Below are positions 2,759 to 56,767 of a stretch of DNA of 64,000 nucleotides, piece by piece. Under the pieces are notes generated by a model. That model made no database searches and was not told the origin of the DNA. It was given only the letters and a program-made list of their open reading frames with translations. Source of the stretch: Candidatus Rokuibacteriota bacterium (GTDB lineage Bacteria > Methylomirabilota > Methylomirabilia > Rokubacteriales > CSP1-6); contig VGLJ01000002.1 in the NCBI GenBank assembly GCA_016866775.1, positions 28,174 to 92,173 of the forward strand. The letters are read 5' to 3'. Numbering within the stretch: position 1 is the stretch's first letter; each line of letters begins with the position of its first letter. The position numbers were made by a program, and so were the translations under genes.

Positions 2759-2761
2759 CGC

Positions 2762-4177: not shown

Positions 4178-4180
4178 GGC

Positions 4181-5170: not shown

Positions 5171-5175
5171 CGTCG

Positions 5176-6177: not shown

Positions 6178-6188
6178 GGATTGAACTC

Positions 6189-10225: not shown

Positions 10226-10226
10226 G

Positions 10227-14596: not shown

Positions 14597-14604
14597 CACG
14601 TATT

Positions 14605-37791: not shown

Positions 37792-38770
37792 CGGCCCCTC
37801 CGCGCAGCGCGACCCAGAACGCGGTCACGAGCAGCAGGCCCAGCGTCGCCGGCAGCAGCAGCTTCCACGACACCGCGAGGATCTGGTCCACGCGGATGCG
37901 CACGAAGCTCCAGCGCACCCACGTGACGACGAGAAAGACCAGCATCGCCTTCAGGAGGAACCAGAGCACGCCGATCGCCGGGATGTCGGAGCCGGGGCCC
38001 AGCCAGCCGCCGAGGAAGAGCAGCGCGCCGAGGAAGGAGCTCGCGATCATGTGGGCGTACTCGCCGAGCTGGATGATCGCGAACTTCATCCCGCTGTACT
38101 CGACGCGGAAGCCCGCGACCAGCTCCGACTCCGCCTCGAGGATGTCGAACGGCACGCGGTTCTCGGCGGCGAGCGTCGCGACGAGGAACGCGACGAAGCC
38201 GAGCTGGCCGATGACCGGATACGCGACGAACCAGAGGCCCTGCTGCGCGGCGACGATCGCGGACATCTGCAGCGAGCCGGCGAGCACCACCGGGATGAGC
38301 GCGGCGAAGACGAACGGCAGGTCGTAGGAGATGATCTGGTTCACCGCGCGCATCGCGCTCAGCAGCGCGTACTTGTTGTTCGAGCCCCAGCCGCCCATGA
38401 AGAGGCCGACGATCTCGAGCGACGACACCGCGAGGAAGAACAGCACGCCGATGTTGAGGTCGGCGAGGCCCAGCCGGGGCGCGAACGGGATCGTCGCGAA
38501 GATGAGCACGCACGGGATGAGGAACACGATCGGCGCGAGGTTGTAGACCCACCGGTCGGCCGCGCGCGGCACGATGTCTTCCTTCATCATCAGCTTGAGC
38601 GCGTCGGCGATCGGCTGCAGCAGCCCGTGCGGGCCGACGCGGTACGGCCCGATCCGCGACTGCATCCGCGCCGCGAACTTGCGCTCGAGAAGCGTCACGT
38701 ACGTGACCATCCCGATCACGGCGTTGAGCAGGATGAAGGCGGCGAGCGCGTCCAGCGCGAGATGCTCCAT
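37784..38770 (-). CDS. nuoH: NADH-quinone oxidoreductase subunit H (cluster 2)
   Basis: NuoH/ND1 signature (ERKFAARMQSRIGPYRVGP..., EAESELVAGFRVEYSG). Confidence 0.95.
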   Translation of the reverse strand: MEHLALDALAAFILLNAVIGMVTYVTLLERKFAARMQSRIGPYRVGPHGLLQPIADALKLMMKEDIVPRAADRWVYNLAPIVFLIPCVLIFATIPFAPRLGLADLNIGVLFFLAVSSLEIVGLFMGGWGSNNKYALLSAMRAVNQIISYDLPFVFAALIPVVLAGSLQMSAIVAAQQGLWFVAYPVIGQLGFVAFLVATLAAENRVPFDILEAESELVAGFRVEYSGMKFAIIQLGEYAHMIASSFLGALLFLGGWLGPGSDIPAIGVLWFLLKAMLVFLVVTWVRWSFVRIRVDQILAVSWKLLLPATLGLLLVTAFWVALRGGAGA

Positions 38771-38773
38771 GGC

Positions 38774-39937
38774 CTAGCGGTCCACCTCGCCGAAGACCGG
38801 ATCCACGGAGCCCATGATGGCGACGACGTCCGCCACCTTGCAGCCCGGGATGATGTGCGGGAGGATCGCGAGGTTCGAGAACGAGGCGCCGCGCACCTTC
38901 ATGCGATAGGGCTTCGGGCCGCCGTCGGCGACGATGTAGAAGCCGATCTCGCCGCGCGCGCCCTCGACGCGCGCGTACCCTTCCCCCTTCGGCACGCGCA
39001 CCTGCCCGACCGACTTCACGCCCGGCCGCGACGAGATCGGCCCCTCGGGCAGCCCGTCGAGCGCCTGGCGGACGATCTTGATCGACTCGCGGAATTCGAC
39101 CATGCGCACGCGGTAGCGCGCGTAGCAGTCGCCCGCCGTCTCCACGGGCACCTTGAAGTCGAAGTCCTGGTAGGACGAGTACGGCTCCGCGCGGCGCAGG
39201 TCGAAGTCGATCCCGGAGCCGCGCGCGAGCGGGCCCGACACGCCGACCTCCTGCGCGAGGGTCGCGCTGATCACCCCGACGCCCTGCGTGCGCACGAGGA
39301 AGAACGCGTTGTCCTCGAGCATCGCCTCGTACTCGTCGAGGCGCTGCTCGATGAGCGCGATCGTCTCGCGGCACGTCTGCGCCCAGCCCGGCGGGATGTC
39401 GTAGCGCGTGCCGCCGACCTGGTGGAAGCCGTAGAGCAGGCGCGCGCCGGTGAGCGACTCGAAGAGATCGAGGATCAGCTCGCGCTCGCGGATGCAGTAG
39501 AGGAACACCGTGGCGCCGCCGCCGAGTGCCCCGCCCATGTCGAGGCACCACGTGCCGAGCCAGAGGCAGTGCGAGGCGATCCGCTGGAGCTCGGCGACGA
39601 TCACGCGCAGGTACTGCGCGCGCTTCGGGACCTCGAAGCTCGCCACCTTCTCAACGGCGGTGACGTAGGCGAGCTCGGCGGTCATCGCGGCCACGTAGTC
39701 CGTCTTCGACGCGATCGTCGGGTACTGCACGTACGTCAGCATCTCGCCGAGCTTCTCGTGACAGCGATGCAGGTAGCCGATGACCGCGTCGACGGCGACG
39801 ACGGTCTCGCCCTCGAGCGTGAGGATCGCGCGGAAGACGCCGTGGGCGGACGGGTGCTGCGGCCCCATGTTCATCACGAGGCGCTCGTTGCCCCCGTAGC
39901 CGAGCTCGATGACTTTCCGCGATTCGCTGTCCGCCAT
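38774..39937 (-). CDS. nuoD: NADH-quinone oxidoreductase subunit D (cluster 2); true start MADSESRKVIELGYGG
   Basis: NMGPQHPSAHGVFR...C-terminal GSVDPVFGEVDR. Confidence 0.9.
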   Translation of the reverse strand: MADSESRKVIELGYGGNERLVMNMGPQHPSAHGVFRAILTLEGETVVAVDAVIGYLHRCHEKLGEMLTYVQYPTIASKTDYVAAMTAELAYVTAVEKVASFEVPKRAQYLRVIVAELQRIASHCLWLGTWCLDMGGALGGGATVFLYCIRERELILDLFESLTGARLLYGFHQVGGTRYDIPPGWAQTCRETIALIEQRLDEYEAMLEDNAFFLVRTQGVGVISATLAQEVGVSGPLARGSGIDFDLRRAEPYSSYQDFDFKVPVETAGDCYARYRVRMVEFRESIKIVRQALDGLPEGPISSRPGVKSVGQVRVPKGEGYARVEGARGEIGFYIVADGGPKPYRMKVRGASFSNLAILPHIIPGCKVADVVAIMGSVDPVFGEVDR

Positions 39938-39942
39938 CCGGC

Positions 39943-40578
39943 CTACTTCATCGGCGAGGACGGCGCCGGGATCAGGATGATCGACTTCATGTCGACGAGC
40001 AGCGGCGTCGCCTTGCCGAGGAATGCCTGCCACTCGGGATCCGCGATCGCCCTGGCGCGCACCGACGCACGCTCGTTGAGGTCGCGGTACGCCCACATGT
40101 GCACGGCCTCGTTGAGCTGGCCCGCTTCCGTCTGCCACAGGCCCACGTTCTTCGAGTACTTCTCGCGCACGGGCATGATGTCCTTGATGTGGCCGATCCA
40201 TTCGCCGATCCGGCCCGTGTGCGACCGGTACCAGCGGAGCTCGTAGAGCCATCCGCTGTCCGCGGGCGGCTCGAGCGGCAGCTGCGGCGAGAGGATCTTG
40301 TTCTCCTGCGCGAGGATCAGCGTGCGGATGCGCGGCACGTACTCCTTCGTCCACGCGTCGTTCTTCGCGAGCTGACCGCGCAGCCGCTCGCGCTCGTCGA
40401 GGCTCGGATACTCCCAGAGGTGGACGTACCGGTTGAGCGTCCCGAACTCGGTCGTCCACGAGCCGGCGAGCCGGCCGTAGTCGTCACCGCGGATCTTGCG
40501 GCCGACCTCGACGTTCAGCTTGAGGTACTCGGGCAGCTTGCCCGGCGTCAGCGTGTAGGTGCGCAGCTCGTAGATCAT
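39943..40578 (-). CDS. tandem NIPSNAP-domain protein embedded between nuoC and nuoD of cluster 2
   Basis: Two repeats of YELRTYTL...G.W..E.G.LN..VHLWEY.SL.ER (second: YELRWYRSH...VHMWAYRDLNERA). Confidence 0.8.
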   Translation of the reverse strand: MIYELRTYTLTPGKLPEYLKLNVEVGRKIRGDDYGRLAGSWTTEFGTLNRYVHLWEYPSLDERERLRGQLAKNDAWTKEYVPRIRTLILAQENKILSPQLPLEPPADSGWLYELRWYRSHTGRIGEWIGHIKDIMPVREKYSKNVGLWQTEAGQLNEAVHMWAYRDLNERASVRARAIADPEWQAFLGKATPLLVDMKSIILIPAPSSPMK

Positions 40579-40597
40579 GCGTCCTTCCTCTCTCGCC

Positions 40598-41057
40598 TCA
40601 GCGGTACGGCGAATAGTCGGCGTCCACGAAGTCCTTGCGCAGCGGGTGGCCGGCCGGCCAGTCCTGTCCGAGCAGGATGCGCCGGAGATCGGGATGGCCG
40701 TCGAAGACCACGCCGAACATGTCGTAGCACTCGCGCTCCATCCAGTCCGCGCCCTTCCAGACGTCCGTCAGCGTCGGGCAGTGCACGTTGCCCGCGCCGA
40801 GCTTCGTCCGCAGCATCAGCGCCACGCGGCTCTCGAGGTTCTCGACCCGGCAGACGACTTCGAAGCCCTGCTCCTTCCAGTCGATCGCGCTGAGCCAGCT
40901 GAAGTAGAGACAGCCGATGGCGTCATGGGCGATCCGCGCGGCCGCGTGCCAGCGATCGACCGGCACGTCGAGCGTCACCAGCGCGCCCGCGACGGTCGGG
41001 GTCAGACCGAGGTGCTGTTCGAGGCGGGCGGCCGCGACGTCGAACGCGATCTTCAAG
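40598..41057 (-). CDS. nuoC: NADH-quinone oxidoreductase subunit C (cluster 2), probable TTG start
   Basis: [25 protein letters not shown] signature. Confidence 0.85.
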
Positions 41058-41685
41058 AGGTGGCGGCCGGCGTGACGACGCGCGTGCCCGTCTTCTGGAA
41101 CTCCGCGACCTGCTCCTGGAGCTTGAGCAGCCCGTACATGAGGGAATCCGGCGTGGGCGGACAGCCGGGGACGTAGACGTCGACGGGCACGACGCGATCC
41201 ACGCCCTTGACCACGTGGTAGCCGTGACGGAACGGGCCGCCGGAATTCGCGCACGACCCCATCGACACCACCCACTTCGGGTCGGGCATCTGGTCGTAGA
41301 TGCGCTTGAGCATCGGCGCCATCTTGATGGTCACGGTGCCCGACACGATCATCAGATCGGAGTGGCGGGGCGAGGCCCACGGGACCATGCCGAATCGCTC
41401 GACGTCGAAGCGGCTGGCGAACGTGGCCATCATCTCGATCGCGCAGCACGCCAGGCCGAACGTCACGGGCCAGAGCGAGGACTTGCGCGCCCAGTTGAAG
41501 ATCTTGTCCGTCGACGTGGTGACGATCCAGCCGCCGGGCATGTGGTGGATCGCGTCGGCGATCGACGCGAGCGTGTTCGACGTCTTGTCGTCGCCGGCCC
41601 GGGTCTGATGGTACTTCTCCCACTCCTGCAGATCCTTCACGTCGCTCCAGCCGGGCGGCGGGACCTGGGGCAGGGGCCGCTTCAC
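41053..41685 (-). CDS. nuoB: NADH-quinone oxidoreductase subunit B (cluster 2), GTG start overlapping the nuoA stop
   Basis: [12 protein letters not shown]...[10 protein letters not shown]...VPGCPPTPD motifs. Confidence 0.9.
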
Positions 41686-42035
41686 TTCCACTCCAGCACT
41701 CCCTCGCGATACGCGTACACCCAGCCGAGCATCACGATCGCGATGAACGCGGCCATCACCCAGAACGCGCCGAGGCCGGCGGTGCGCACGACGAGGGCCC
41801 ACGGGATGACGAAGACCGCCAGCGCGTCGAAGACGATGAAGACCAGCGCGACGAGGTAGAACCCGACCGGGAACTGGACCCATGCAGAGCCGATGGGCTC
41901 GGCACCACATTCGTAGTTCTCGAGCTTCACAGCATCGGGCCGCGCCGGCCGGAGCAGCCACGCGACGCCGATCGACACCACGCCGAACGCGACGATGAAG
42001 GCGGCGAATATCGCGACTGCCAGGTACTCGGACAC
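41682..42035 (-). CDS. nuoA: NADH-quinone oxidoreductase subunit A (cluster 2), GTG start, GGAGG RBS
   Basis: [12 protein letters not shown]...NuoA signature; upstream AT-rich CATATATACT -10-like box. Confidence 0.9.
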
Positions 42036-43588: not shown

Positions 43589-43894
43589 ATGGGATTCTTT
43601 CGGCGCGAAATAGAAGTGACGCTCAAGATGCTCGGCGTGGCGTTGCTCGTCGGGCTCATCGTTCTCCCCGTCGCGTGGGGGTACGAGCAGCGGCGCCAGG
43701 CGCGCACGTGGCAGAACGTGGCCTGTGCCTATCGCATCAAGGAGGTCACGCGCACGGCGCCGTTCATCCAGAACGTCGAGCGCGCTCCCGACGCGTGCAC
43801 GGCGCTCGCGCGGCCTGGATTCCAGCTGTCGGAGACGGAGTTCGTGCCGCTGCCGACGGCGGCCGCGGGCCTTTCCTCGACGAGGACTCGCTAG
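43589..43894 (+). CDS. small hypothetical membrane protein (101 aa)
   Basis: GGGGGAG RBS 7 nt upstream; one TM helix LGVALLVGLIVLPVAW. Confidence 0.45.
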   Translation: MGFFRREIEVTLKMLGVALLVGLIVLPVAWGYEQRRQARTWQNVACAYRIKEVTRTAPFIQNVERAPDACTALARPGFQLSETEFVPLPTAAAGLSSTRTR

Positions 43895-45366
43895 GACGCG
43901 GCGAGCGCTTCGGCTTTCCGTTCACCGTCCGGGCCTGAGAGCACCAGCAGACGGTAGTCGCGTGCGAGACGCGTCGCCTGACTGAAGTCGGCGCTCTCGC
44001 ACGCGCCGTCCCGCAACGCCTTCTCCGCGGCGGCCAGGGTCGCCGCGAGGACGCGATCGAGATGGGCGGTCATCCGCCGCCGCACGTCGCCGTACCCCTT
44101 CACCAGCTGACCCGCGCGCGCGACCTCACGCGCGAGCTCGATGTTCCACGTCGAGCAGCGACGCACGACCGCGAGCCATCGCGTGATCAGCGCGAACTCC
44201 TCGTGCGCGCGGTAGGAGATCGGCCGGATGCGTCGCAGACGGCCGAGCAGCCACACGCGCAGGTACCCCAGCACGGTCGTCGTGCGGACGTGCTGCGTGA
44301 GGGTCGGGCGGCCGTGCGGCCAGCGTCGCTCGGCCCAGCGCGCGAACGGCGCGACGAGCGCGTGCGGGAGGATGCCGTAGATCTCGTCGAGGTCCGGCTT
44401 CAGGTAGTCCGTGACTTCGACGACCGCGCCGGGTGTCCGCGCTTCGCCCTGGATGCGCGTGAAGCGCGCCGCCCGCGTCTTCAGGTCGGCCACGCGAATG
44501 GCGTCCTCGTACGTCATCCACAGCGCCAGGTACCGCGCGACGTGCGCGGCGACTTCCGCGTCGCCGGCGACGAACGGCTGCAGCAGCGCGAGATAGCGTT
44601 CGGCGTAGCGCGCGTCCTGGTAATCGATCAGCCGCGGCAGCGCCTGGCGGACGATGGGACGGACGGCCTCGGGCATCGCCGCGACGCGCGGGTCGTCGGC
44701 GGCCGGCGCCGCGTGCGCCGCGCCGTTCCGTGCCGCAGCCGCCACGGGTCCGCGGCGCGCCAGCGCGAGGCCGAGCTCGAAACCGCGCAGGTTCGCGTCG
44801 ACCTGGACCCCCTTCGCGCGGATCGCGCCGCGATACGCGTCGTCCTTCAGCGGCAGCACGCCGCTGCCCGCGAGCGCGCCGAGGAGGATGGCGTTGACCT
44901 CGGTGCGGTGCTCGCGCGCGAGCGCCAGCGCGTCGAACGCGTGCAGCGTGCGCGAGAACGCGCGCGCCGCGTCGACGAGGCGATCCGCGGGATAGATCGC
45001 GTTGCCCAGCGCCAGCTTCTCCTGGATCGAGTAGAGGCGGTGCGTGCTGGTGATGATCGTGGTGCGCGCGGGCGACGGAAACCCGAGCTCGATCATCCGC
45101 CCCACCTCGAGGAGCTCCGGCGCCAGGAGCACGTCGAGCGCGCCGGGCACCGGATACAAGGACACCGTGGGCTCGCGATCCCCGGGCGGGAAGATCTCCA
45201 CGTAGTAGGTCGTCGAGCCGGTGCGCTGCGCGACGCCGGGGATGGACGTCCCGTGCGCGACCTGGCCGTCGGCGATCGCCGCTTCGACGAGCCACTCGGA
45301 GAGCACGCCACCGCCCTGCCCCCCGACCGCGGGAATGAGCACGCTGACGAAGCCGGCCTCGTTCAC
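43891..45366 (-). CDS. iorB: indolepyruvate/2-oxoacid:ferredoxin oxidoreductase subunit beta-family protein (GTG start overlapping iorA stop)
   Basis: N-terminal pyruvate-ferredoxin oxidoreductase gamma-like domain (VLIPAVGGQGGGVLSEWL) plus C-terminal extension. Confidence 0.75.
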   Translation of the reverse strand: MNEAGFVSVLIPAVGGQGGGVLSEWLVEAAIADGQVAHGTSIPGVAQRTGSTTYYVEIFPPGDREPTVSLYPVPGALDVLLAPELLEVGRMIELGFPSPARTTIITSTHRLYSIQEKLALGNAIYPADRLVDAARAFSRTLHAFDALALAREHRTEVNAILLGALAGSGVLPLKDDAYRGAIRAKGVQVDANLRGFELGLALARRGPVAAAARNGAAHAAPAADDPRVAAMPEAVRPIVRQALPRLIDYQDARYAERYLALLQPFVAGDAEVAAHVARYLALWMTYEDAIRVADLKTRAARFTRIQGEARTPGAVVEVTDYLKPDLDEIYGILPHALVAPFARWAERRWPHGRPTLTQHVRTTTVLGYLRVWLLGRLRRIRPISYRAHEEFALITRWLAVVRRCSTWNIELAREVARAGQLVKGYGDVRRRMTAHLDRVLAATLAAAEKALRDGACESADFSQATRLARDYRLLVLSGPDGERKAEALAAS

Positions 45367-47507
45367 TGTGCGAGCGCGGCGAGGCGGCCGATGACGGCGC
45401 GGCGGACGCGCGCGAGGAGGCGCCGCCACCAGCCCGGGTTGGCGACGATCTTCATCTCGTAGAACGACGGGCAGAGGACGGCGGCATGCGCGACTTCTCC
45501 GCACACGCCGCAGCCGACGCACGTCTCGTCGACGTGCGCGATCGGGTCCTCGCGGAGCGCGTCCGGGCTCGGACGCAGCGTCAGCGACGGACAGCCATTG
45601 AACCGCATGCACGAGTGGTCGCCCGTGCACACGTCGGGATCGACGCCGAAGCGCGGCTGCTCCACGGTCTTGCCGGCGGCGGCCCGCGCGCGCTTGCGCG
45701 GCCGCTCGCGTCGCTGGCGCTCCAGCATGCACTCGCCCTTGGCGATGACGACCTTGAGGCCCGGCGCGCGCGTGGTGAGCGCGTCGCGCAGCGTGCCGAT
45801 CATCTCGGGGATGCGATACGACTCGACGGTCTTGATCCACGTCACGCCGAGGCCGCGGAGCGCGCCGGGGATGGTGGTCGTCAGGCGCTCGCCGCGCGCG
45901 TTGGTCCCGGTCGAGGGCACGTGGTGCTGGCCGGTGGCCGCCGCGTAACCGTTGTCGATGATGACGAACACGGCGTCCTGCTTGTTGTAGACGGCGTTGG
46001 CGACGCCGGTCGTGAGCCCATTGTGCCAGAAGCCGCCGTCGCCCATCACCGCGATCGTGCGCTTGCCGAAGAGCGGCGCCACCGCGCTGTTCGACGCGAG
46101 GCCCATGCCGTAGCCGAGCACCGAGTTGCCGATGTTGAACGGCGCCTGCGTCGAGAACGTGTTGCAGCCGATGTCGTGCGAGACGTGCGTGTCGCCGATC
46201 GCGGGCTCGCGCTCGCGCAGGATCTTCATCGCGCTGAACAGCGGGCGCTCCGGGCAGCCGGTGCAGAACGACGGCGGGCGCTTCGCGACCGGCTCGCGCA
46301 GCACGGCGGTGATGCGCTCCTGGTGCTCGGTGAGACGGCGATAGCGGTCGGCGATGGCGCCAGCCGGCACGCCGCGCGGCGAGCAGCCCGCGAAGAACTT
46401 CGCGAGCCCCCCCACGACCAGGCGGGGCACGTATTCGCCGTTCGGCGCGAGCAGGTCCTTGCCGTGGATCTCGACGTCGAGGCGCGCCTCGTGCGCGAGC
46501 GCCTGCAGCTCGCGCTCGATGAAGTTCGGCATCCCCTCCTCGACCACGAAGATCTGACGCTTGCCGCGCATGAACGCGATGAGCTGCTCCGGCACCAGCG
46601 GATGCAGGCAGTTGAGGACGAGCAAGGGGACCGCCGTGCGCCCGTAGATGTCGGCGACGCCGAGCTCCGCGAGCCCGCGCACCGTGGTGTTCCACTGGCC
46701 GCCCTGCATCACGATGCCGATCTCACGATCGTCGCCGTCGAAGATCTCGTTCAGAGCGTGATCGATGACGTACCGGCGCGCCGCGGGCAGGCGGTGCTCG
46801 AACTTCTGCGCCTCCATGGCGTACGTGAACGGGGGCAGGTTGATGCGATCGATCGAGAAGCTCTGCGCGCCGAGCGGCAACAGCGTGCTCACGGCCGGCT
46901 TCACGTTGTCCTTGCAGACGAGCGTGCCGCGCATGTGGCAGGCGCGGATGCGGATCGAGAAGAAGACGGGCTCGTGGCAGGCCTCCGAGAGGCCGAAGCC
47001 TTCCTCGACGAAGCGGGCGAACGACTGGAGGCTGTTGCGCGGATCGAGCAGCGGCACGGAGGACTTCAGCGCCGCCGAGTGCGTGCGCTCCTGCAGGATC
47101 GAGGAGCCTTCGCCGTAGTCCTCGCCGATGACGATCAGGCATCCGCCGCGCACGCCCGCCGACGCGACGTGCGAGAGCGCGTCCGAGGCGACGTTCGTGC
47201 CGACCACCGACTTCCACGTGACGGCGCCACGCACCGGATAGTTGATGGACGCGCCCAGCAGCGCGGCCGCGGCGGCTTCGCTGCCCGACTGCTCGAAGTA
47301 CACGCCCATGGGCCTGAGCAGGACGTCGTTCGCGTCGGCGAGCACGTCGATCATGTGGGAGACCGGCGCGCCCGGATAGCCGCCCACGTAGCTCACGCCG
47401 GACTGCAGGAGGGCCTTCGTGATCGCCAGGATCCCTTCCCCGTGGAGGATCTGGCCGGCGCCGTAGCCGAGCTGCTTGACGTCTTCGGCGAAGGTCCGCT
47501 CGCCCAT
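45363..47507 (-). CDS. iorA: indolepyruvate/2-oxoacid:ferredoxin oxidoreductase subunit alpha (TPP, 2x[4Fe-4S])
   Basis: TPP-binding GDGGFWHNG, cysteine clusters CTGCPERP...CMRFNGCPS...CVGCGVCGE; TATAAT 6 nt upstream of the ATG (leaderless-like). Confidence 0.85.
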   Translation of the reverse strand: MGERTFAEDVKQLGYGAGQILHGEGILAITKALLQSGVSYVGGYPGAPVSHMIDVLADANDVLLRPMGVYFEQSGSEAAAAALLGASINYPVRGAVTWKSVVGTNVASDALSHVASAGVRGGCLIVIGEDYGEGSSILQERTHSAALKSSVPLLDPRNSLQSFARFVEEGFGLSEACHEPVFFSIRIRACHMRGTLVCKDNVKPAVSTLLPLGAQSFSIDRINLPPFTYAMEAQKFEHRLPAARRYVIDHALNEIFDGDDREIGIVMQGGQWNTTVRGLAELGVADIYGRTAVPLLVLNCLHPLVPEQLIAFMRGKRQIFVVEEGMPNFIERELQALAHEARLDVEIHGKDLLAPNGEYVPRLVVGGLAKFFAGCSPRGVPAGAIADRYRRLTEHQERITAVLREPVAKRPPSFCTGCPERPLFSAMKILREREPAIGDTHVSHDIGCNTFSTQAPFNIGNSVLGYGMGLASNSAVAPLFGKRTIAVMGDGGFWHNGLTTGVANAVYNKQDAVFVIIDNGYAAATGQHHVPSTGTNARGERLTTTIPGALRGLGVTWIKTVESYRIPEMIGTLRDALTTRAPGLKVVIAKGECMLERQRRERPRKRARAAAGKTVEQPRFGVDPDVCTGDHSCMRFNGCPSLTLRPSPDALREDPIAHVDETCVGCGVCGEVAHAAVLCPSFYEMKIVANPGWWRRLLARVRRAVIGRLAALAQ

Positions 47508-47838: not shown

Positions 47839-47924
47839 GCCGGAGTGGAGTAACGGTAGCCTCGTGGCGCTCAAAACGCCATGCCCGCAAGGGCGTGTGG
47901 GTTCGAATCCCACCTCCGGTACCA
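47839..47924 (+). tRNA. tRNA-Leu (anticodon CAA), type II, CCA encoded
   Basis: Manual fold: acceptor GCCGGAG/CTCCGGT, anticodon loop CTCAAAA, variable arm GCCC-GCAA-GGGC, T-loop TTCGAAT; TACAAT -10 at 47815..47820. Confidence 0.85.
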
Positions 47925-47993: not shown

Positions 47994-48069
<76 letters not shown>

Positions 48070-48431: not shown

Positions 48432-48905
48432 TCACCGCACCAGCGTGTACTGCACCTGCTGGTTCACCGGCAGCACGTCGATCACGCCGAAGCCGGCGAC
48501 GAACAGATCCGAGAGGGCCTGAGCGCACGGTGCGCCCGGGGCGACGGTCGGGCCGCCCGCGCTGGTGCTCGCGCTCGACACGAGCAATCGGCCGGCGCCC
48601 GTTGAAAACTCGGGGGCGCAGACGATGATCGCCGCCTCTCGCGGCGCCGGCGTCGCGGTCGTGCTCGCCGCCGGCGGCGGCGTGACCGACGTGTTGGGCG
48701 AGAGCGTTCCGGTGGTGTTCGTCTGCGCCGCCAGCGTAGCCGGTGCCAGCATCAGCATCAGGACCGCGAGCGTCGTCCGCATCATCCCCTCCTGACGATG
48801 CTCCTGACACGATCCGTGCGTCTCGGAGCGATTGTCCATCGGCTCGACCTCGCCGACGTTCGCGGGCCGCCCTTCACGCTCGCACCACGCGCATTTCAAC
48901 TTCAT
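48432..48905 (-). CDS. hypothetical membrane-anchored protein: N-terminal Cys/His zinc-ribbon-like segment, one TM helix, Pro/Thr-rich linker, small C-terminal domain (alternative start at 48785 gives a secreted form)
   Basis: MKLKCAWCEREG...THGSCQEH then MMRTTLAVLMLMLAPATLAAQ; GAGG RBS 8 nt before the ATG at 48903-05; lower-GC upstream region. Confidence 0.4.
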   Translation of the reverse strand: MKLKCAWCEREGRPANVGEVEPMDNRSETHGSCQEHRQEGMMRTTLAVLMLMLAPATLAAQTNTTGTLSPNTSVTPPPAASTTATPAPREAAIIVCAPEFSTGAGRLLVSSASTSAGGPTVAPGAPCAQALSDLFVAGFGVIDVLPVNQQVQYTLVR

Positions 48906-48967: not shown

Positions 48968-49690
48968 TCACCCCCCGAGATAGAGCCGCTTCACCTCGGG
49001 ATCGTCGAGCAGCGTCCGGCCGGGGCCTTCGAAGCGATTGCGTCCGAGCTCGAGGACGTAGCCGCGGTCCGCGATGGCGAGCGCGCGCGCGGCGTTCTGC
49101 TCGACGAGCATCAGCGTGAAGCCCGCCGCCTTCATCTCGACGAGCTTGTCGAAGATCTGCGTGACGAACTTCGGGGAGAGCCCGAGCGACGGCTCGTCGA
49201 GCATGATGAGGCGGGGCGCGGTCATCAGCGCGCGGCCGATGGCGACCATCTGCTGCTCGCCGCCGGACATCGTGCCGGCCTTCTGCCGCCGCCGCTCGCC
49301 CAGCACGGGGAACAACGCGAAGACGCGCTCGAGCGCCGCGGCGATCCGGCCGCCATCGCGCTCGATGTACGCGCCCATCTCGAGGTTCTCCAGCACGGTC
49401 ATCTGGGGGAAGACGATCCGCCCCTGCGGAACGTACGCGAGACCGCGGCGCAGCACGAGATCGGGGCGCAGCCCGGTGATCACGTCGCCGTTGAAGACCA
49501 CGCGGCCGGTCCGCGGCGCGAGGAAGCCGACGATCGTCTTGAAGGCCGTCGACTTGCCGGCGCCGTTCGGTCCGATGACGCTCACGATCTCGCCCTCGTG
49601 CACGGTGAGCGAGACGCGGTGGAGGATGTCCATCCGGCCATAGCCGGCGGTGAGGTCCTCGGCGACGAGGAGCGGCGCGTCGGCGGTCAT
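48968..49690 (-). CDS. livF: branched-chain amino acid ABC transporter ATP-binding protein LivF
   Basis: Walker A GPNGAGKST, signature MSGGEQQ, LivF-type C-terminus. Confidence 0.9.
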   Translation of the reverse strand: MTADAPLLVAEDLTAGYGRMDILHRVSLTVHEGEIVSVIGPNGAGKSTAFKTIVGFLAPRTGRVVFNGDVITGLRPDLVLRRGLAYVPQGRIVFPQMTVLENLEMGAYIERDGGRIAAALERVFALFPVLGERRRQKAGTMSGGEQQMVAIGRALMTAPRLIMLDEPSLGLSPKFVTQIFDKLVEMKAAGFTLMLVEQNAARALAIADRGYVLELGRNRFEGPGRTLLDDPEVKRLYLGG

Positions 49691-50334
49691 GGCCGCCGCG
49701 TGCACACGTAGAGGACGTGCGGATACGGCAGGATGTCCACCATCAAGTGGCGCCGCACCGTGAATCCGGTGCGCTCCAGCGCCGCCGTCAGCTCGTCGCC
49801 GGACCAGTAGCGGACGGGGGCGCGCGGATCCATCGCCTTGTCGAGCGCCCACGTGAACCAGCGCTTGAGCACGGGCCGCGTGTCGACGTCCTTCACGAGG
49901 AGCATCCCGCCCGGCGCGAGCGCGCGGTGGAGCTGCCGCAGGAGCGGCGGAACGGCCGCCGGAGACACGTGGTGGACGATGTCGAGCATGTACGCCGCGG
50001 CGACTTCCGAATCCCCCTTGAAGTCGCGCGCGTCGGTCTCTTCGTAGGCGACGTTCTCGAGCCCGAGGCGCGAGGCGGCACGGCGGGCGAGCGCGATGCG
50101 GCGCGTGTTGCGATCGAGGCCGCGCAGGAACCGCGCGGGCGCCGTCGCCGCGTAGTAGAGCGAGAAGAGCCCGAACCCGCAGCCGATGTCGAGCACGGTG
50201 CCGGCCGGCGGCAGGTACTGGCCGATCTCGTCGAGGAAGCGCTGATGGACGATCGCGAAGCGCGCCCAGCAATAGGCCCGCACCACGGGGTCGTCGTACG
50301 CGCGAACGATGCTACGAACGGTGTCGCTTCGCAT
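49687..50334 (-). CDS. class I SAM-dependent methyltransferase
   Basis: Motif I VLDIGCGFGLFS, motif post-I, LLVKDV; start and stop overlap flanking genes. Confidence 0.75.
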   Translation of the reverse strand: MRSDTVRSIVRAYDDPVVRAYCWARFAIVHQRFLDEIGQYLPPAGTVLDIGCGFGLFSLYYAATAPARFLRGLDRNTRRIALARRAASRLGLENVAYEETDARDFKGDSEVAAAYMLDIVHHVSPAAVPPLLRQLHRALAPGGMLLVKDVDTRPVLKRWFTWALDKAMDPRAPVRYWSGDELTAALERTGFTVRRHLMVDILPYPHVLYVCTRRP

Positions 50335-51772
50335 GGATCCGGTATCCGTCGCCCTGGCGAGCCAGGACGTAGTGCTCCTCGAGCCAGGTCGCCAGCGCGG
50401 GGAACGCGGCGATGCGCTCGTAGCCGCCGCTCGGCCACCCCGGCTCCCACAGCACGACGACCGCCGGCGGTCGCGCGCGCAGATCGCGCAGCAGCTCCGC
50501 GCGCAGCCGCTGGATCATCGGGGCCTCGACGTGGTGGAAGAAATGAAAGTCGTACACGAACCGCGTCGGCTGGACGAGCCGCGCGCGGAGCAGCGCGTGC
50601 ACGCCGCCATCCGTCGTATCGAGCACCTGAACGGTCTCGCCGGCGCGCGTCCGCGCGGCGAGATCGGAGACGAGCGCGGTCACGCGCCGCTCCTTCATCG
50701 CGATCCATCCCGAGTCCGCGGCTTCGGCCCCTTTGACGCCGAGCAGCCACACGACGGCGGCGAGTCCGGCCACGAGCATGCCGAGCGCGGGACGACGCGC
50801 GCGCTCGACCTCGGCGCAGAGCAACACCGCCGCGAACACCGCGAGCGGATAGAGGTGGTACTCCCAGCCTTTCCGCTGCAGGACGAAGTGCGCGAGACCG
50901 TACGCGAGCCCGAGCATCGCCACCGCGTGGCGGGCCGTGATCGCGCGACGCCACGCCACGCTCGCGACGGAGACCGCGAGCGTCGCGAGGATGGCCACCC
51001 AGACGTGCCAGCGGAAGTAGAGCCAGTCGGCCGGGCGGAAGACGCGTGAGTAGAGCGGCACCAGGTAGCCGAGGACGATCTCGCGCCACGCGCCGAGGGC
51101 GCCGAGAGCGGCAAGCCACGCACCGGCCGCGAGCGGCGCCACGACGATGCCGCCGACGAACGCCGCCAGCGGCGCGCCGGTACGCGTGCCAGCGCGCACC
51201 AGGATGAACACGCCGAGCGCGGCCGCCAGCACGATCGTGTGCGGCTTGATCGTCATGCCCGCACCGAGCGCGAGCCCGCCGCCGAAGAGCGCAGGCAAAC
51301 CGCCGAGCCCGCGTCCGGGCGCCGGCGTCGCGAGGCGCTCCGCCCAGCGCACGACGCCGAGCGCGCCGGCGAGCAGGAGCGGGCACAGCAAGAAATCACG
51401 CTGCCCCGCGTTCCACGCTCCACCCGCGAGATGATAGGCCGCGAAGAACAGCGCGCCTCCGATCGCGGCGACCCGTCCCCACGGGGCGGCCATCAGCGCG
51501 ACGAGGAGCGCCGCGACGCCGGTGACGCCCAGGTCCACGGCCCGCCACGCGAGATCCCCCGTCCCGAGCACGCGCACGACACCGAGATGGAAGAGATACA
51601 CGCCGGGAAAGTTCATGTCGAACAGGTCGCGGTACGGCACCGCGCCGTCCAGGATCCTCCACGCGATGTAATGCAGGATCGGCGCGTCGTGAATGAGCGG
51701 CCAGCCGAGGGACGCCCACCCGAGCCACACGACGAGAAACCCGAACGCGCCGACGAGGAGATTACCGGCCAA
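50312..51772 (-). CDS. GT-C fold membrane glycosyltransferase (family 39/83, ArnT/PMT-like), TTG start inside the livG 3' end
   Basis: ~12 TM helices, periplasmic loops, size and topology of ArnT-like transferases. Confidence 0.65.
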   Translation of the reverse strand: MAGNLLVGAFGFLVVWLGWASLGWPLIHDAPILHYIAWRILDGAVPYRDLFDMNFPGVYLFHLGVVRVLGTGDLAWRAVDLGVTGVAALLVALMAAPWGRVAAIGGALFFAAYHLAGGAWNAGQRDFLLCPLLLAGALGVVRWAERLATPAPGRGLGGLPALFGGGLALGAGMTIKPHTIVLAAALGVFILVRAGTRTGAPLAAFVGGIVVAPLAAGAWLAALGALGAWREIVLGYLVPLYSRVFRPADWLYFRWHVWVAILATLAVSVASVAWRRAITARHAVAMLGLAYGLAHFVLQRKGWEYHLYPLAVFAAVLLCAEVERARRPALGMLVAGLAAVVWLLGVKGAEAADSGWIAMKERRVTALVSDLAARTRAGETVQVLDTTDGGVHALLRARLVQPTRFVYDFHFFHHVEAPMIQRLRAELLRDLRARPPAVVVLWEPGWPSGGYERIAAFPALATWLEEHYVLARQGDGYRIHAKRHRS

Positions 51773-52466
51773 AGTAGGCTTCGATCACGCGCTGATCGCT
51801 CTGGATCACGCCCGGCGGGCCCTCCGCGATCTTCTCGCCGTGATCGAGGACGAACACGGTCTCGCACAGTCCCATGACCACTTTCATGTCGTGCTCGACG
51901 AGGAGCACCGTCTTGCCCGCGTCGCGCAGGCGCCGGACGGCGTCGAGCAGCTCGTTGAGCAGCGTGCGGTTGACGCCGGCGGCCGGCTCGTCGAGGAGCA
52001 CGAGCGACGGGTCGCGCATGAGCATCCGCACGAACTCGACGAGCTTCTGCTGCCCGTAGGACAGATTGCCCGCATACTCGCCCGCGAGATCCTGAAGCCT
52101 GACGAAGGCGAGCAGCTCGCGCGCGTGCGCCTCGGCCGCCGCGCGCGGACCGCGCGTCACAACCAGCAGGTTCTCGAGCGCGGTGAGCTCGGGGAACACG
52201 CGGATCATCTGGAACGTGCGGCCGACGCCACGGCGTGCGATCTCGTACGGCTGCAGCCCGTGGATCGGCTCCCCGTCGAGCAGGATGCGGCCCCGATCGA
52301 GCCGCTCGACGCCGGTGATGCAGTTGAACAGCGTGGTCTTGCCCGAGCCGTTCGGTCCGATGAGCCCGTGGATGCGGCCGCGCTCGAGCGACAACGACAC
52401 TCCGCTGACGGCGCGCACGCCGCCGAAGCTCTTGTGGACGTCCGCCACCTCGAGGGCGGGTGCCAA
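51762..52466 (-). CDS. livG: branched-chain amino acid ABC transporter ATP-binding protein LivG (TTG start overlapping the livM stop)
   Basis: Walker A GPNGSGKTT, signature LSYGQQK, LLDEPAAG. Confidence 0.9.
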   Translation of the reverse strand: MAPALEVADVHKSFGGVRAVSGVSLSLERGRIHGLIGPNGSGKTTLFNCITGVERLDRGRILLDGEPIHGLQPYEIARRGVGRTFQMIRVFPELTALENLLVVTRGPRAAAEAHARELLAFVRLQDLAGEYAGNLSYGQQKLVEFVRMLMRDPSLVLLDEPAAGVNRTLLNELLDAVRRLRDAGKTVLLVEHDMKVVMGLCETVFVLDHGEKIAEGPPGVIQSDQRVIEAYFGR

Positions 52467-52468
52467 GG

Positions 52469-53389
52469 TCAGACCGTCCTCGGCAGCCGGTACTTGAGCT
52501 GGAGGAGCCCGAGGATCCCGCGCGGCATCGCGAGCACGACCGCGACGATGATCGCGCCGAAGAGCAGCGGGTGGATGTACGGATACCGCGCCCAGACCAT
52601 CTCCTGGGCGACGAAGAGGACGACGGCGCCGAGCACCGGGCCCCAGACCGTCCCCTTGCCGCCGAAGAGCGTCATCACGATCATCGTGATCGTCGTCGCG
52701 AGCGGGAACACGCTGAGCGGCTCGATGTAGCCCTGATCGCGCGCGGTGAGCGCGCCGGCGATCCCGGGACCGATCGCCGACAGCAGGAACGCGACGAGCT
52801 TGTGCCGGAACGTGGGAATGCCCATCGCCTCGGCCGCGACCTCGTCTTCGCGAATCGTCATCAGCCGCAGACCGAACCGCGACCCGATGATGAGGCGCGC
52901 GCCGAACGTCACCGCGAGCGCCGTCACGCCCATCGCGTAGTAGATCGGCACCGTCGCGTCGAGCGTCGGCATCGACAGCCCGTTGCCGCCGCCCGTGAGC
53001 CCCTCGAAGTACGAGACGAGCGCGCGCAGCACCTCGTTGAGGCCGAGCATCGCGATGGCGAAGTACGGCCCCTTCAGCCGGAGACACGGTCCTCCGATGG
53101 CGAGCGCGAGGACGCCGGCGGCGGCGCCGGCCGCGAGCGTCGCGATCGGCCACGACCAGCCGGCGGACGCGATCAGGATGCCCGCCGTGTAGGCGCCGGC
53201 GCCGAAGAACGCGACGTGGCCGAACGACACGTAGCCCGTGAGCCCCGAGATGAGGTTCCAGGAGCCGGCGAGCGCGATCCACATGAAGGCCTGGAGCACG
53301 GAGCGGAGGCCGTAGCCCGTCCCGACGGCCGGATAGCAGGCGAGCGCGACGAGCACCAGGACGAGCGCGGCGAGCACGGCGGGCCTCAC
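52469..53389 (-). CDS. livM: branched-chain amino acid ABC permease LivM (GTG start overlapping the livH stop)
   Basis: LivM-type hydrophobic sequence (YAMGVTALAVTFGA...). Confidence 0.85.
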   Translation of the reverse strand: MRPAVLAALVLVLVALACYPAVGTGYGLRSVLQAFMWIALAGSWNLISGLTGYVSFGHVAFFGAGAYTAGILIASAGWSWPIATLAAGAAAGVLALAIGGPCLRLKGPYFAIAMLGLNEVLRALVSYFEGLTGGGNGLSMPTLDATVPIYYAMGVTALAVTFGARLIIGSRFGLRLMTIREDEVAAEAMGIPTFRHKLVAFLLSAIGPGIAGALTARDQGYIEPLSVFPLATTITMIVMTLFGGKGTVWGPVLGAVVLFVAQEMVWARYPYIHPLLFGAIIVAVVLAMPRGILGLLQLKYRLPRTV

Positions 53390-54264
53390 GTCTGCCGGCC
53401 TCCGAGCAGGCCCGTGGGCCGCACGAGGAGGACGAGCACGAGCAGCACGTACGCGACGACCTCGGAGAGCTGCGTGGTGAGGAAGAGCGAGGCGAGCTGC
53501 TCGATCAGCCCGAGCAGCATCCCGCCGAGGAGCGCGCCCGGGTAGTTCCCCGCGCCGCCGAGGACGATCACGAGGAACGACTTGAACGTCCAGATCTGGC
53601 CCATCTCCGGCTGGATGGCGACGATGACCGAGATCAACGCGCCCCCCGCGGCGGCGAGCGCGCTCGCGAGCCCGAACGTGAGGCGGTGGATCTTGCCCAC
53701 GTCGATGCCGCACACCATCGCGACCTCGCGGCTCTGCGACGTCGCGCGGATCGCCTTGCCGAGGCGCGTGGACCGGAGGAAGAGGAACGCGCCGCCGGTG
53801 AGGAAGCCGGCGAACACGAACGCGATGACGCGCGACTTCGAGAAGGCGAACGGGCCGAGCACCCACGAGCCCGTGATGTATTCGACCGCGCGCAGGTCGG
53901 AGGTGAACGCGAGCTGTGCTCCGTTGACGAGCGCGATGGAGATGCCGAACGTCAGCAGCAGCGACGACAGCTCGGGCGCGTCGACGACGCGGAACACGAG
54001 CGTCCGCTCCAGCACGACGCCGGCGACGAACAGCACGGCCATGCTGATCGGCACGGTGAGATACGGATTCAGCCCGAACGCGCTGTAGAGGAAGAAGGTC
54101 GTGTACGCGCCGAGCATCAGCAGGGGCCCGTGCGCGACGTTGATGATCCTCATGACGCCGAAGATCAGCGCGAGCCCGAGCGCGACCATCGAATAGAGAA
54201 CGCCCGAGAGAATGCCCGAGATGATGACCTGCCCGATCATGGCCGGCGTGATGACGATGTTCAT
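53386..54264 (-). CDS. livH: branched-chain amino acid ABC permease LivH
   Basis: LivH-type sequence (GVMRIINVAHGPLLMLGAYTT...). Confidence 0.9.
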   Translation of the reverse strand: MNIVITPAMIGQVIISGILSGVLYSMVALGLALIFGVMRIINVAHGPLLMLGAYTTFFLYSAFGLNPYLTVPISMAVLFVAGVVLERTLVFRVVDAPELSSLLLTFGISIALVNGAQLAFTSDLRAVEYITGSWVLGPFAFSKSRVIAFVFAGFLTGGAFLFLRSTRLGKAIRATSQSREVAMVCGIDVGKIHRLTFGLASALAAAGGALISVIVAIQPEMGQIWTFKSFLVIVLGGAGNYPGALLGGMLLGLIEQLASLFLTTQLSEVVAYVLLVLVLLVRPTGLLGGRQT

Positions 54265-54365
54265 GTGGCTCTGATCTCAATCGTCACGCGTTGGCTCAGC
54301 AGTGTCCGAGCGCCGGCTCCGCCGGCGCATCCTGCCCTGGGGAGGCAGGAAGGAGCACGCCGCAG

Positions 54366-54414
54366 GCGTGCGACGACCGTCGGAAGGGGGGCGCGAAGCC
54401 CCCCTCCGAGTTAT
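54366..54414. repeat. REP-like palindromic element, copy C, filling the livK-livH intergenic spacer and abutting the livK stop codon
   Basis: gcgtgcgacgaccgtcGGAAGGGGGGcgcgaagCCCCCCTCCgagttatc; ~90% identical to copy A. Confidence 0.65.
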
Positions 54415-55593
54415 CTATCGCCCGGACCAGGGTGGAGTGGGGAAGAGGACCTTGCCCTGGGCGAGGTCGTCCGGCCACACGATGACCTTCTTCTCCTTCT
54501 GCCACTGGAAGGTGACCATCTTGTGCGCGGTCTGGAAGCCGTCCTGGTCGACCTTGTAGTCGCCGAACATCGTGCGGATCTCGAGCTTCAGCAGCGCGTC
54601 ACGCACCTTGTCGGAGTCGAGGCTGCCGGCGCGCTTGACGCCCTCCGCGTAGATCAGGCAGCCCGCGTAGCCGGCCGCGGAGTGGTACACCGGCTCGCGC
54701 TTGAACTCGGCCTTGTACGCCTCGAACCATTCCTTGTTGCCGGGATACTTGAGGTCCGCCTCCCACTGCGTGGCGCCGTAGATGTACTCGGCGTTGCCCT
54801 TCAGCAGGTCGTAGAACTCCGGGAGGTCCCCGCCGACGGTCACGCCGTACATCTTCGGGTTCACGTTGAGCTCGCGCATCTGCCGCGTGAGCGCGACCGC
54901 GTCGTCGAAGTACGTCGCGGCGGCGATGACGTCCGGGTTGGCGGCCTTGATCTTCGTCAGCAGTGCGGAAAAGTCCGTGTTGCCCTTCGGGTACGCCTCG
55001 GTCAAGACGATCTGCATGCCCTTTTTCTTGGCGAGGTCGGCGGCGCCGGCCGCCGCAGCCTTCGAGAACAGCGTGTCCTCGTTCACGATGGCCACGGTCT
55101 TGAGCCCGCGCCTGGCCGCCGTGTCGACGAGGCCCTCCAGGTACACCTCGGCGGGCGAGATGACCATGAACATGTACTTGCGGCCCTTCTTGAAGATCGA
55201 CGTCGTCGCGGCGAGCGGCGACACCATCACCTTTTTGTACTTCTCGGTGACGTTGGCCACGGCCTCGGTGATCGGCGACGAATACGGGCCCATCACCACG
55301 TCGACCTTGTCCTCGGTGATCAGCTTTTCGTACAGGCGCACGCCCGTCGGCGGCATCGACTGGTCGTCGTAGATGACGAACTCGACTTTCCGGCCGAGCA
55401 GGCCGCCCTTCGCGTTCAACTCCTTCTGGCAGAACTGGTAGCCCTCGTGCTGGTATTTTCCGGGCTTCGCGTAGGTGCCGGTCAGCGACAGCGAGGCGCC
55501 GATCCGGATCGGGCCCTGGGCGTCGGCCGCGAGCGAGGCACAGAAGACGCCGAGGACCGTGAGAACGACGGCGAGAATCGCCGGACGTTTCAT
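54415..55593 (-). CDS. livK: branched-chain amino acid ABC transporter substrate-binding protein (true start MKRPAILAVVL, signal peptide)
   Basis: Periplasmic binding protein type I (LivJ/K-like); GGAGGT RBS. Confidence 0.9.
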   Translation of the reverse strand: MKRPAILAVVLTVLGVFCASLAADAQGPIRIGASLSLTGTYAKPGKYQHEGYQFCQKELNAKGGLLGRKVEFVIYDDQSMPPTGVRLYEKLITEDKVDVVMGPYSSPITEAVANVTEKYKKVMVSPLAATTSIFKKGRKYMFMVISPAEVYLEGLVDTAARRGLKTVAIVNEDTLFSKAAAAGAADLAKKKGMQIVLTEAYPKGNTDFSALLTKIKAANPDVIAAATYFDDAVALTRQMRELNVNPKMYGVTVGGDLPEFYDLLKGNAEYIYGATQWEADLKYPGNKEWFEAYKAEFKREPVYHSAAGYAGCLIYAEGVKRAGSLDSDKVRDALLKLEIRTMFGDYKVDQDGFQTAHKMVTFQWQKEKKVIVWPDDLAQGKVLFPTPPWSGR

Positions 55594-55696: not shown

Positions 55697-56103
55697 ATGA
55701 AGGCCGAACCCGCCAGCCCCGGAACGCCGTCCGTCGGACGCTCCATCCTGATCATCGAAGATCACGATGACGCGCGCGAGGCGCTGCGCGCGCTGCTCGA
55801 GCTCGAGGGCCACCGGGTCGAGGCGGCCGCCTCGGGCCCCCGGGCGTCGAGCTCGCGCGCCAGACGCTGCCCGACATCGCGCTGGTGGACATCGGGCTGC
55901 CGGAAGTCGACGGCTACGAGGTGGCGCGGCGTCTCTGCGGACTCACCGGCCGCCCGTACCTGATCGCGCCGACGGGGTACGGCCAGCCGGACGACGTCAA
56001 GCGCGCCCGGGACGCCGGCTTCGACGCCCACCTTCTCAAGCCCGTCGATCCCGACGCGCTGGCGAAGGTCCTGAGCGCGGCCCCCTACTCGCGGAACTCC
56101 TGA
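55697..56103 (+). CDS. single-domain CheY-like response regulator; apparent -1 frameshift near 55845 (C5/G3 homopolymer)
   Basis: N-half ILIIEDHDDAREALRALLELEGHRVEAAASGP in one frame; C-half LPDIALVDIGLPEVDGYEVARRL...LLKPVD in the adjacent frame. Confidence 0.6.
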
Positions 56104-56582
56104 TCCAGGATCTCGCGGATGAAGCGGTCGAGGGAGACGGGATAGAACCGCGCGTCCGGCGACACGATCACGCCGGTGTCGATGATCTCGCGGCGTGAGA
56201 GCTCCTCCAGCACCCGCTCGACGTGGCTGCCGGCGTCGCGATCCTGCCGCCGGATCTTCAGATCGTCGCTCTCGAGGGTCACGCGGCCCGCGTATTTGAA
56301 GCTGAACACCCGCGCGACGATCCGGTGATCCATCAGCTCCTGCTCGCCGAACAACTCACCGTAGGTCGGCCCGTCACGGCCGGGCGCGATGACGAGCCGG
56401 GGCGAGACCTTGATGCGCCCGCGCACTTCCACGGAGCGCGCCGGGGCGTCGTGATCCGCGCCGACGAGGATGTACGGCAGCACGTGGTAGCCGCTGATGA
56501 TCCCGCGGAGCGGCTTGCGCAGCACCGTCGTCTCGTCGAAGACGTGCTGGAGCAGCTCCGCGTCGTTCCATTCGGGGTCCAT
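56085..56582 (-). CDS. hypothetical protein (165 aa; start MDPEWNDAELL)
   Basis: ORF track; no recognised family; translationally coupled to the upstream zinc-ribbon ORF. Confidence 0.4.
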   Translation of the reverse strand: MDPEWNDAELLQHVFDETTVLRKPLRGIISGYHVLPYILVGADHDAPARSVEVRGRIKVSPRLVIAPGRDGPTYGELFGEQELMDHRIVARVFSFKYAGRVTLESDDLKIRRQDRDAGSHVERVLEELSRREIIDTGVIVSPDARFYPVSLDRFIREILDQEFRE

Positions 56583-56767
56583 CACGGATCCGCGCAATCG
56601 CGATAGAAGCCACACCGCTTGCAGAGGATCTTGCACTTCTGCTCTTCCATCCGCGCGCCGCACCGCTCGCAGTAGTGCTCCCACTCCACGCCGCCGCCGC
56701 CCCGATCGATCGCGCGGTCGTTCATGGCGAGAGCGTGGCATCCGATCCGCCGGCAAGTCAACATCAC
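56582..56767 (-). CDS. small zinc-ribbon protein (two or three CxxC pairs)
   Basis: HYCERCGARMEEQKCKILCKRCGFYRDC. Confidence 0.4.
   Translation of the reverse strand: MMLTCRRIGCHALAMNDRAIDRGGGGVEWEHYCERCGARMEEQKCKILCKRCGFYRDCADP

Follow-up and report, generated by a model that had tools for sequence, protein, structure and literature searches.

A glycosyltransferase-like gene and a methyltransferase gene set between the ATPase genes of a LIV-type importer operon in Rokubacteria are kept independently of the importer genes

We asked why two genes for unrelated proteins lie between the two ATPase genes of an importer operon, and whether they depend on that importer. The operon is on the minus strand of a 64,000-nucleotide stretch of Candidatus Rokuibacteriota DNA (contig VGLJ01000002.1, positions 28,174 to 92,173; hereafter the window). 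The two genes encode a 486-amino-acid (aa) membrane protein that resembles glycosyltransferases of the GT-C fold (here called GT) and a 215-aa methyltransferase dependent on S-adenosylmethionine (SAM) (here called MT). The ATPase genes of LIV-type importers are usually adjacent, as in E. coli livKHMGF, whereas here 2.1 kb of coding sequence, made up of GT and MT, separates livG from livF. We consider it probable, though well short of certain, that GT and MT are an autonomous module for envelope glycosylation, which shares its expression with the importer and does not depend on it.

The earlier note on this DNA had given the gene order as livK-livH-livM-livG-GT-MT-livF, with a spacer after livK, and the Pfam and NCBIfam gene assignments bear this order out:

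54415-55593, minus strand: livK-type periplasmic solute-binding protein, 392 aa, with a signal peptide, first gene of the operon (Pfam Peripla_BP_6, 2.2e-78); ATG at 55593, with GGAGG just 5′ of the start
54265-54414, minus strand: GC-rich stem-loop spacer of 150 nt between livK and livH (RNA fold −82.3 kcal/mol, z −4.0)
53386-54264, minus strand: livH-type permease, 292 aa (Pfam BPD_transp_2, 2.8e-38)
52469-53389, minus strand: livM-type permease, 306 aa, with a GTG start overlapping the livH stop (Pfam BPD_transp_2, 3.7e-35)
51762-52466, minus strand: livG-type ATPase, 234 aa (Pfam ABC_tran, 2.4e-33, and BCA_ABC_TP_C)
50312-51772, minus strand: GT, a GT-C-fold glycosyltransferase-like membrane protein, 486 aa, with 11-13 transmembrane helices and a C-terminal extracytoplasmic alpha/beta domain
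49687-50334, minus strand: MT, a class I SAM-dependent methyltransferase, 215 aa (Methyltransf_23, 1.1e-16; Methyltransf_25, 1.6e-15)
48968-49690, minus strand: livF-type ATPase, 240 aa, last gene of the operon (Pfam ABC_tran, 1.2e-31)

The importer set of the LIV-I / HAAT type is complete by Pfam and NCBIfam, with a binding protein, two BPD_transp_2 permeases and LivG-type and LivF-type ATPases. The top NCBIfam matches of the two ATPases were LivG (221.6 bits against an equivalog cut-off of 362) and LivF (250 bits against 441), and because both scores fall under their cut-offs, 'branched-chain amino acid' is here a family label and not an established substrate. Like E. coli livKHMGF, the operon has the five component types in canonical order, permease genes that overlap and a stem-loop that follows the gene for the binding protein; it differs in the interval between livG and livF and in the two unrelated proteins encoded there. 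The spacer between livK and livH had been called a 'REP', but its repetitive nature found no support: the main hairpin occurs once in the window, and no Rfam family matched the spacer. Its stem-loops may make the livK message more stable or reduce expression of the genes downstream, a putative role in mRNA stability or polarity.

How tightly are the two extra genes built into the operon? All three junctions that flank them (livG/GT, GT/MT and MT/livF) overlap, as had been read from the sequence before. GT starts with a TTG at 51772, 11 nt within livG, whose stop codon occupies 51764-51762. Because an in-frame TGA 15 nt upstream of the TTG closes the frame, and because the next start candidate, a GTG at 51730, would shorten the first transmembrane helix (TM1, residues 2-23 in the structure model) to 9 residues, this TTG is the sole start that yields a complete GT. 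The ATG of MT (50334) precedes the GT stop by 23 nt and is supported by the constant length of the MT homologs (215 aa; 77-98% identical), and an ATGA at 49690-49687 is shared by the MT stop and the livF start. No promoter-like or terminator-like sites were found within livG-GT-MT-livF. The overlapping start and stop codons support the proposal, already made in the earlier note, that livG, GT, MT and livF are one translationally coupled unit.

Does this coupling make GT and MT part of the importer? A scan of one genome per species gave 129 GT relatives, and seven window proteins were mapped onto the best 80 of these loci, essentially all of them from metagenome-assembled genomes (MAGs) of Methylomirabilota/Rokubacteria. 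The loci fell into the following groups:

44 of 80 loci: livG upstream and livF downstream of GT(-MT)
about 6 of 80 loci: consistent with livG-GT-MT-livF, interrupted by contig ends
21 of 80 loci: liv genes absent from both sides, although there is room for them
8 of 80 loci: no liv gene seen, contig end close by

The GT-MT pair itself was much more constant than its surroundings. In about 75 of the 80 loci, those without liv genes included, MT begins 23 nt ahead of the stop codon of GT, a distance of 11 or 20 nt in subclades; MT is missing from one locus (L048), and only a fragment of it is left in another (L024). MT is also better conserved than GT (62-87% versus 44-72% identity).

The loci with and without liv genes share their neighbours. 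Upstream these are a LigD-type primase gene, a gene called c7 and the gene for a 166-aa protein, c4; downstream they are iorAB-like genes, or a pair of GT2 and PMT_2 genes, a secretin-like gene and others. Remnants of the importer were found at several of these places: a C-terminal fragment of livK directly upstream of GT (L011), frameshifted livG and livF fragments (L033 and L072) and a shortened livG with livF fragments (L062). Every deep clade of a neighbour-joining GT tree contains liv-embedded loci, and the liv-less loci are nested among them many times. The tree, the synteny and the remnants together indicate that transporter genes were lost repeatedly around an intact GT-MT pair. The exact 12-residue GT signature was kept in 22 of the 28 liv-less or remnant loci, and the other six had conservative signature changes or a truncated GT gene call. 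Because the pair, with its signature intact, outlasts the loss of liv genes at syntenic loci, it is independent of the flanking importer.

The pair also stands free of liv genes in contigs of other base composition, which together span 43-68% GC. One contig outside the Rokubacteria lineage (L091/L094; GC 0.61) has overlapping GT (38% identity) and MT (54%) genes and no liv, and the pair is present in L148 (GC 0.43), L126 and L158 as well. In L127 (GC 0.38), MT is followed by a different GT-C protein of the PMT_2 type. The idea of coupled import and envelope modification, which had been offered for this operon, is not supported, in view of at least 21 syntenic loci where GT-MT is intact and livKHMG and livF are gone, and of these liv-free contigs.

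In many liv-less loci c4 abuts GT at −4 to +28 nt and may there be co-transcribed with GT-MT. In the window c4 occupies 56085-56585 (minus strand); its product, a cytoplasmic protein of 166 aa, matched no Pfam model, and nearly all related genomes have the gene upstream of the operon. Between the operon and c4 is a response-regulator receiver gene (55697-56103, plus strand) that is split by a frameshift near 55840-55885 and is intact (126-132 aa) in related loci; the split copy is either a pseudogene or the result of an assembly indel.

These loci bear directly on a functional explanation of the gene order, in which the GT-C protein with MT would modify a component or substrate of the transporter, for example by glycosylating LivK or periplasmic loops. 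We regard this as quite unlikely. It would account for the position between the ATPase genes, with overlapping codons, which is conserved in about 50 species, and for a second, apparently functional GT paralog (GT′) found between livM and livG in six genomes. The six loci (L028, L029, L045, L059, L060 and L069, at about 4700-6300 in each) have the order livK-H-M-GT′-livG-GT-MT-livF; GT′ is about 50% identical to GT, keeps every signature residue and forms one monophyletic duplication clade. A distant GT homolog that overlaps an SSF symporter gene at its stop would point the same way. Against it, GT-MT is kept where livKHMG and livF are deleted or decaying, contigs of other base composition carry the pair and no liv genes, the two closest relatives of that homolog do not have the SSF adjacency, and LivK lacks a Ser/Thr/Pro-rich linker such as is usually O-glycosylated. 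The SSF case concerns an alphaproteobacterial MAG (L088:4604-7470), in which a GT homolog (35% identity) starts 4 nt inside the stop of the SSF sodium:solute symporter gene and has no MT beside it. A recurrent transporter association of the GT family was considered on this ground and rejected, the adjacency being incidental.

What kind of protein is GT? Neither Pfam (even at E<=10) nor NCBIfam had a hidden Markov model (HMM) that matched it, PMT (PF02366), MIR, PMT_4TMC and ArnT included, and the database entry with the identical sequence, from a Candidatus Rokubacteria MAG, is labelled a hypothetical protein. A search of PDB sequences with the GT family alignment profile gave noise alone (E 0.6-1.2). 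The family is nevertheless large: a search of 5.8 billion proteins gave more than 1100 relatives, and a profile run against 1.84 billion cluster representatives hit 934 of them at E<=1e-30 and 5860 at E<=1e-3. PMT_2 (PF13231) was matched weakly, at best with 1e-10, by 32 of 55 aligned GT homologs, and PMT by none.

The AlphaFold (AF2) model of GT, built on the homolog alignment, reached a predicted local distance difference test (pLDDT) score of 92 and a predicted template modelling (pTM) score of 0.92. It shows 11-13 hydrophobic helices, for which the earlier description as '12-TM' was about fair, followed by a C-terminal alpha/beta domain of about 110-130 aa, the layout of ArnT. The multi-pass membrane domain carries the conserved helical core of the GT-C superfamily. 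Conservation was scored over 123 full-length cluster representatives with 25-52% identity, and the residues conserved at >=85% were D29, P46, Y47, D49, D52, N54, P56, Q124, R125, D126, K176, P177, Y305, H306, Q382 and D408. D29 (95%) directly follows TM1, and D49 (90%) and D52 (86%) fall within the first-loop motif PYxDxxDxNxP; QRD at 124-126 and KP at 176-177 are further conserved motifs. GT thus has conserved acidic residues in the first extracytoplasmic loop after TM1, as GT-C enzymes do. Judged by position, D29, D49 and D52 may be the counterparts of the Asp that is catalytic in ArnT or PMT. The conservation pattern fits an active GT-C enzyme, and GT is likely, as a prediction from sequence, to be catalytically competent.

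The label 'GT39/83-like' stood as far as the fold and the weak PMT_2 matches of the homologs go, and failed in that no HMM matched GT directly. The fold scores of the model to PMT and to ArnT were similar and neither HMM matched, so these results favour neither GT39 nor GT83. GT is like ArnT (GT83; undecaprenyl-phosphate-L-Ara4N:lipid A transferase) in its GT-C fold, its N-terminal multi-helix membrane domain, its C-terminal extracytoplasmic alpha/beta domain and a conserved Asp in the first external loop; in addition, some GT homologs adjoin Arn-like donor genes (DegT aminotransferase, GT2). It is unlike ArnT in being only 10-12% identical, in matching neither PMT_2 nor any ArnT model of NCBIfam, in its pairing with a methyltransferase and in being embedded in an importer operon. 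The first-loop motif of ArnT/PMT_2 is of the 'EKP' type, against PYxDxxDxNxP in GT, a comparison of unaligned motifs. With the protein O-mannosyltransferases (GT39; Pmt1/2/4 and bacterial Pmt) the membrane core alone aligns, over 334 residues; unlike these enzymes, GT has no PMT, MIR or PMT_4TMC match, and its C-terminal domain architecture is ArnT-like instead.

MT is more readily placed. Methyltransf_23, 25, 11, 31 and 12 all scored above the Pfam cut-offs, the SAM motif DIGCGFG is invariant, and MT is clearly a class I SAM-dependent methyltransferase with a Rossmann-like domain, as had been predicted (23, 25 and 11 confirm the superfamily). HMM classification therefore gave a superfamily for MT and, for GT, no PMT or ArnT model. 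The AF2 model of MT (pLDDT 83) has alternating strands and helices. Its nearest structures were Rv2258c (Foldseek E 4e-14), SibL, CysG/BelI and SgvM, at template modelling scores of 0.65-0.72 and 16-24% identity. None of the named equivalogs (UbiG, CpaM, TehB, CFA synthase and others) reached its NCBIfam cut-off, the top score being 40.7 bits for CpaM (cut-off 180), with 36.8 for UbiG (cut-off 103), and the 'UbiG/UbiE' labels on MT homologs in the source annotation are generic.

Another way to explain both proteins is that the GT-C-like protein is catalytically dead and serves as a structural or accessory subunit, or that the substrates of MT are imported amino or keto acids. This we consider improbable. 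It would agree with the failure of GT to match any glycosyltransferase HMM, with MT structural neighbours that include the alpha-keto-acid C-methyltransferase SgvM and CysG/BelI, and with the iorAB-like 2-oxoacid oxidoreductase genes next to the operon. However, the acidic and basic residues at positions typical of GT-C enzymes are strongly conserved in more than 900 clusters, MT is inherited with GT and not with liv or ior genes, and the structural similarities of MT are generic. Keto-acid methylation was therefore not read from the SgvM and CysG/BelI matches, which are too generic to count as evidence.

If GT is a glycosyltransferase, where would its sugar come from? The neighbours of its relatives are informative in this respect. 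Directly 3′ of livF, L004 has genes for GT2, an RmlA-like nucleotidyltransferase, a dehydratase/epimerase, a dTDP-sugar isomerase and a DegT aminotransferase; several Rokubacteria loci have a Dpm1-like GT2 and a second GT-C of the PMT_2 type; L089 has GT2, FdtA, a hexose 2,3-dehydratase and a B12-radical-SAM enzyme; L126 has GFO_IDH, a hexapeptide transferase, GT2 and DegT; and in L112 a Wzx-like flippase adjoins MT. In L148:83-5170, a metagenome contig, UbiA-like, FAD_binding_4 (DprE1-like) and SDR (DprE2-like) genes precede the overlapping GT-MT pair. These upstream genes resemble the mycobacterial decaprenyl-phospho-arabinose (DprE1/E2) route, which suggests that the donor of this relative may be a polyprenyl-phospho-pentofuranose. 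B12-binding or other radical SAM genes adjoin distant GT/MT relatives (L089:3754-5235, L092:4392-5888 and L127:7-702) and may encode alternative methylating partners.

The Haloferax Agl pathway ends in the GT-C enzyme AglB, an oligosaccharyltransferase whose external domain differs from that of GT. The same N-glycosylation pathway involves the SAM methyltransferase AglP (PMC3871713), and AglP of Haloferax volcanii is thus a precedent for the division of labour between a methyltransferase such as MT and a GT-C enzyme in a lipid-linked glycan pathway. It is set apart from MT by context: the Agl genes do not overlap and are not in a transporter operon. Three-component systems consist of a polyprenyl-phosphate-sugar synthase, a flippase and a GT-C enzyme (Gtr, GT136; PMC11127046), and the sugar-gene contexts of the GT relatives fit this published scheme. 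GT resembles these systems in having a C-terminal, possibly acceptor-binding domain, and its relatives adjoin GT2 or UbiA/DprE-like donor-synthesis genes and a flippase. It differs in that synthase and flippase are not adjacent to it in the window and in most Rokubacteria loci, and in that its constant partner is a SAM methyltransferase, a component that the published scheme does not include.

We infer a donor, a site of MT action and an acceptor as follows. The module would consist of an ArnT/PMT-like GT-C glycosyltransferase and a tightly co-inherited, cytoplasmic class I SAM methyltransferase, and would have become embedded between livG and livF of one LIV/HAAT-type operon early in Rokubacteria (Methylomirabilota), with vertical descent since. 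MT would act in the cytoplasm, where SAM is supplied; its substrate would be the donor sugar, the lipid-linked form of that sugar or a related lipid precursor. At the outer face of the cytoplasmic membrane, the GT-C enzyme would transfer the sugar from a donor linked to polyprenyl phosphate to an envelope acceptor (lipid, glycan or protein), with the C-terminal domain aiding acceptor binding. Translational coupling of livG, GT, MT and livF would lead to co-expression of the module with the importer, and its activity would not depend on the importer.

Several observations weigh against this reading. The window GT itself matches no glycosyltransferase HMM, and hhalign found no homology between the GT family profile and the neighbouring PMT_2 protein, a comparison in which the single-sequence template is too weak. 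No polyprenyl-phosphate sugar synthase or flippase was found near the window operon, nor were any of the sugar-donor genes that adjoin its relatives. The structural neighbours of MT are generic small-molecule methyltransferases, alpha-keto-acid and amino-acid-related enzymes among them. The multiple losses of liv genes are drawn from a rough neighbour-joining tree. That about 50 species keep GT-MT between the ATPase genes, with GT′ in the same operon in some, makes a functional tie to the transporter possible despite the loss events, and such genomes carry other liv paralogs (L011, L030 and L119). The proposal as a whole is built on sequence and predicted structures.

A bolder version of the glycosylation proposal, which we find doubtful, is that the GT-C/MT pair is an uncharacterised two-enzyme system found across several phyla, in which MT would ready a methylated lipid-linked sugar or lipid and the GT-C enzyme would install it on the envelope, and which in Rokubacteria would be hard-wired codon-to-codon into an importer operon. 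If this were true, envelope decoration would be set stoichiometrically by the expression of nutrient uptake, or the GT-C enzyme would act on the expanded Liv-family binding proteins.

Finally, we asked how old the arrangement is. The order livG-GT-MT-livF did not arise by chance, as it recurs in 44 of the 80 genome loci and in many metagenome contigs, and three homologs at 57-72% identity have the identical livK-H-M-G-GT-MT-livF order on long contigs. As the GT identity in liv-embedded loci reaches 44%, the arrangement is old and vertically inherited. We dismiss the view that a normal livGF pair was split by a recent insertion, by horizontal acquisition or by an assembly artefact: although LIV-type ATPase genes are ordinarily adjacent and one related locus (L119) has livG next to livF with GT-MT after them, the order is the same in dozens of independent assemblies down to that 44%, GC is uniform along the operon with GC at third codon positions (GC3) of 0.90 in GT and 0.93 in MT, near the 0.92-0.97 of the liv genes, and no repeats, integrase or tRNA were found at the junctions, which consist of overlapping coding sequence. 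The earlier suggestion of an operon-internal insertion stands, and the insertion is ancient and lineage-wide in related genomes; the comparison of liv operons, in which 44 of 80 loci keep livG-GT-MT-livF, gave neither a recent insertion nor a misassembly. A literature search on this arrangement returned nothing relevant.

The L119 locus (17-6654) carries a paralogous livKHMGF, 44-66% identical to that of the window, with GT-MT directly after it; either the two are neighbours by chance, in genomes rich in liv genes, or the arrangement is an alternative one. Downstream of the window operon, 182 nt from livF, lies a gene for a 117-aa secreted protein (48432-48785, minus strand) whose Ser/Thr/Pro-rich N-terminal region resembles a linker of the O-glycosylation type. 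As a conserved acceptor it was rejected, with no homolog in about 170 related loci. Beyond it, tRNA-Leu(CAA) (47839-47924, plus strand) and tRNA-Ala(GGC) (47994-48069, plus strand) separate the operon from iorA/iorB-like 2-oxoacid:ferredoxin oxidoreductase genes (43891-47507, minus strand), which are syntenic in several related loci. The window also contains two paralogous clusters of NADH:quinone oxidoreductase (nuo-like) genes, at 6189-14599 and 31663-42035 (minus strand).

The locus has no bearing on a long-standing open question, and nothing in it points to a new transport mechanism. Its interest lies in an annotation gap: GT is a member of a large GT-C subfamily that is mostly missed by HMM libraries and that has a near-obligate MT partner. 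In this uncultured phylum the pair would be a sensible target for defining a new CAZy-type family and a chemistry that is new in its donor or acceptor. Furthermore, two unrelated genes were fixed between the ATPase genes of an importer and then outlived that importer several times. This means that co-transcription is separable from functional dependence.

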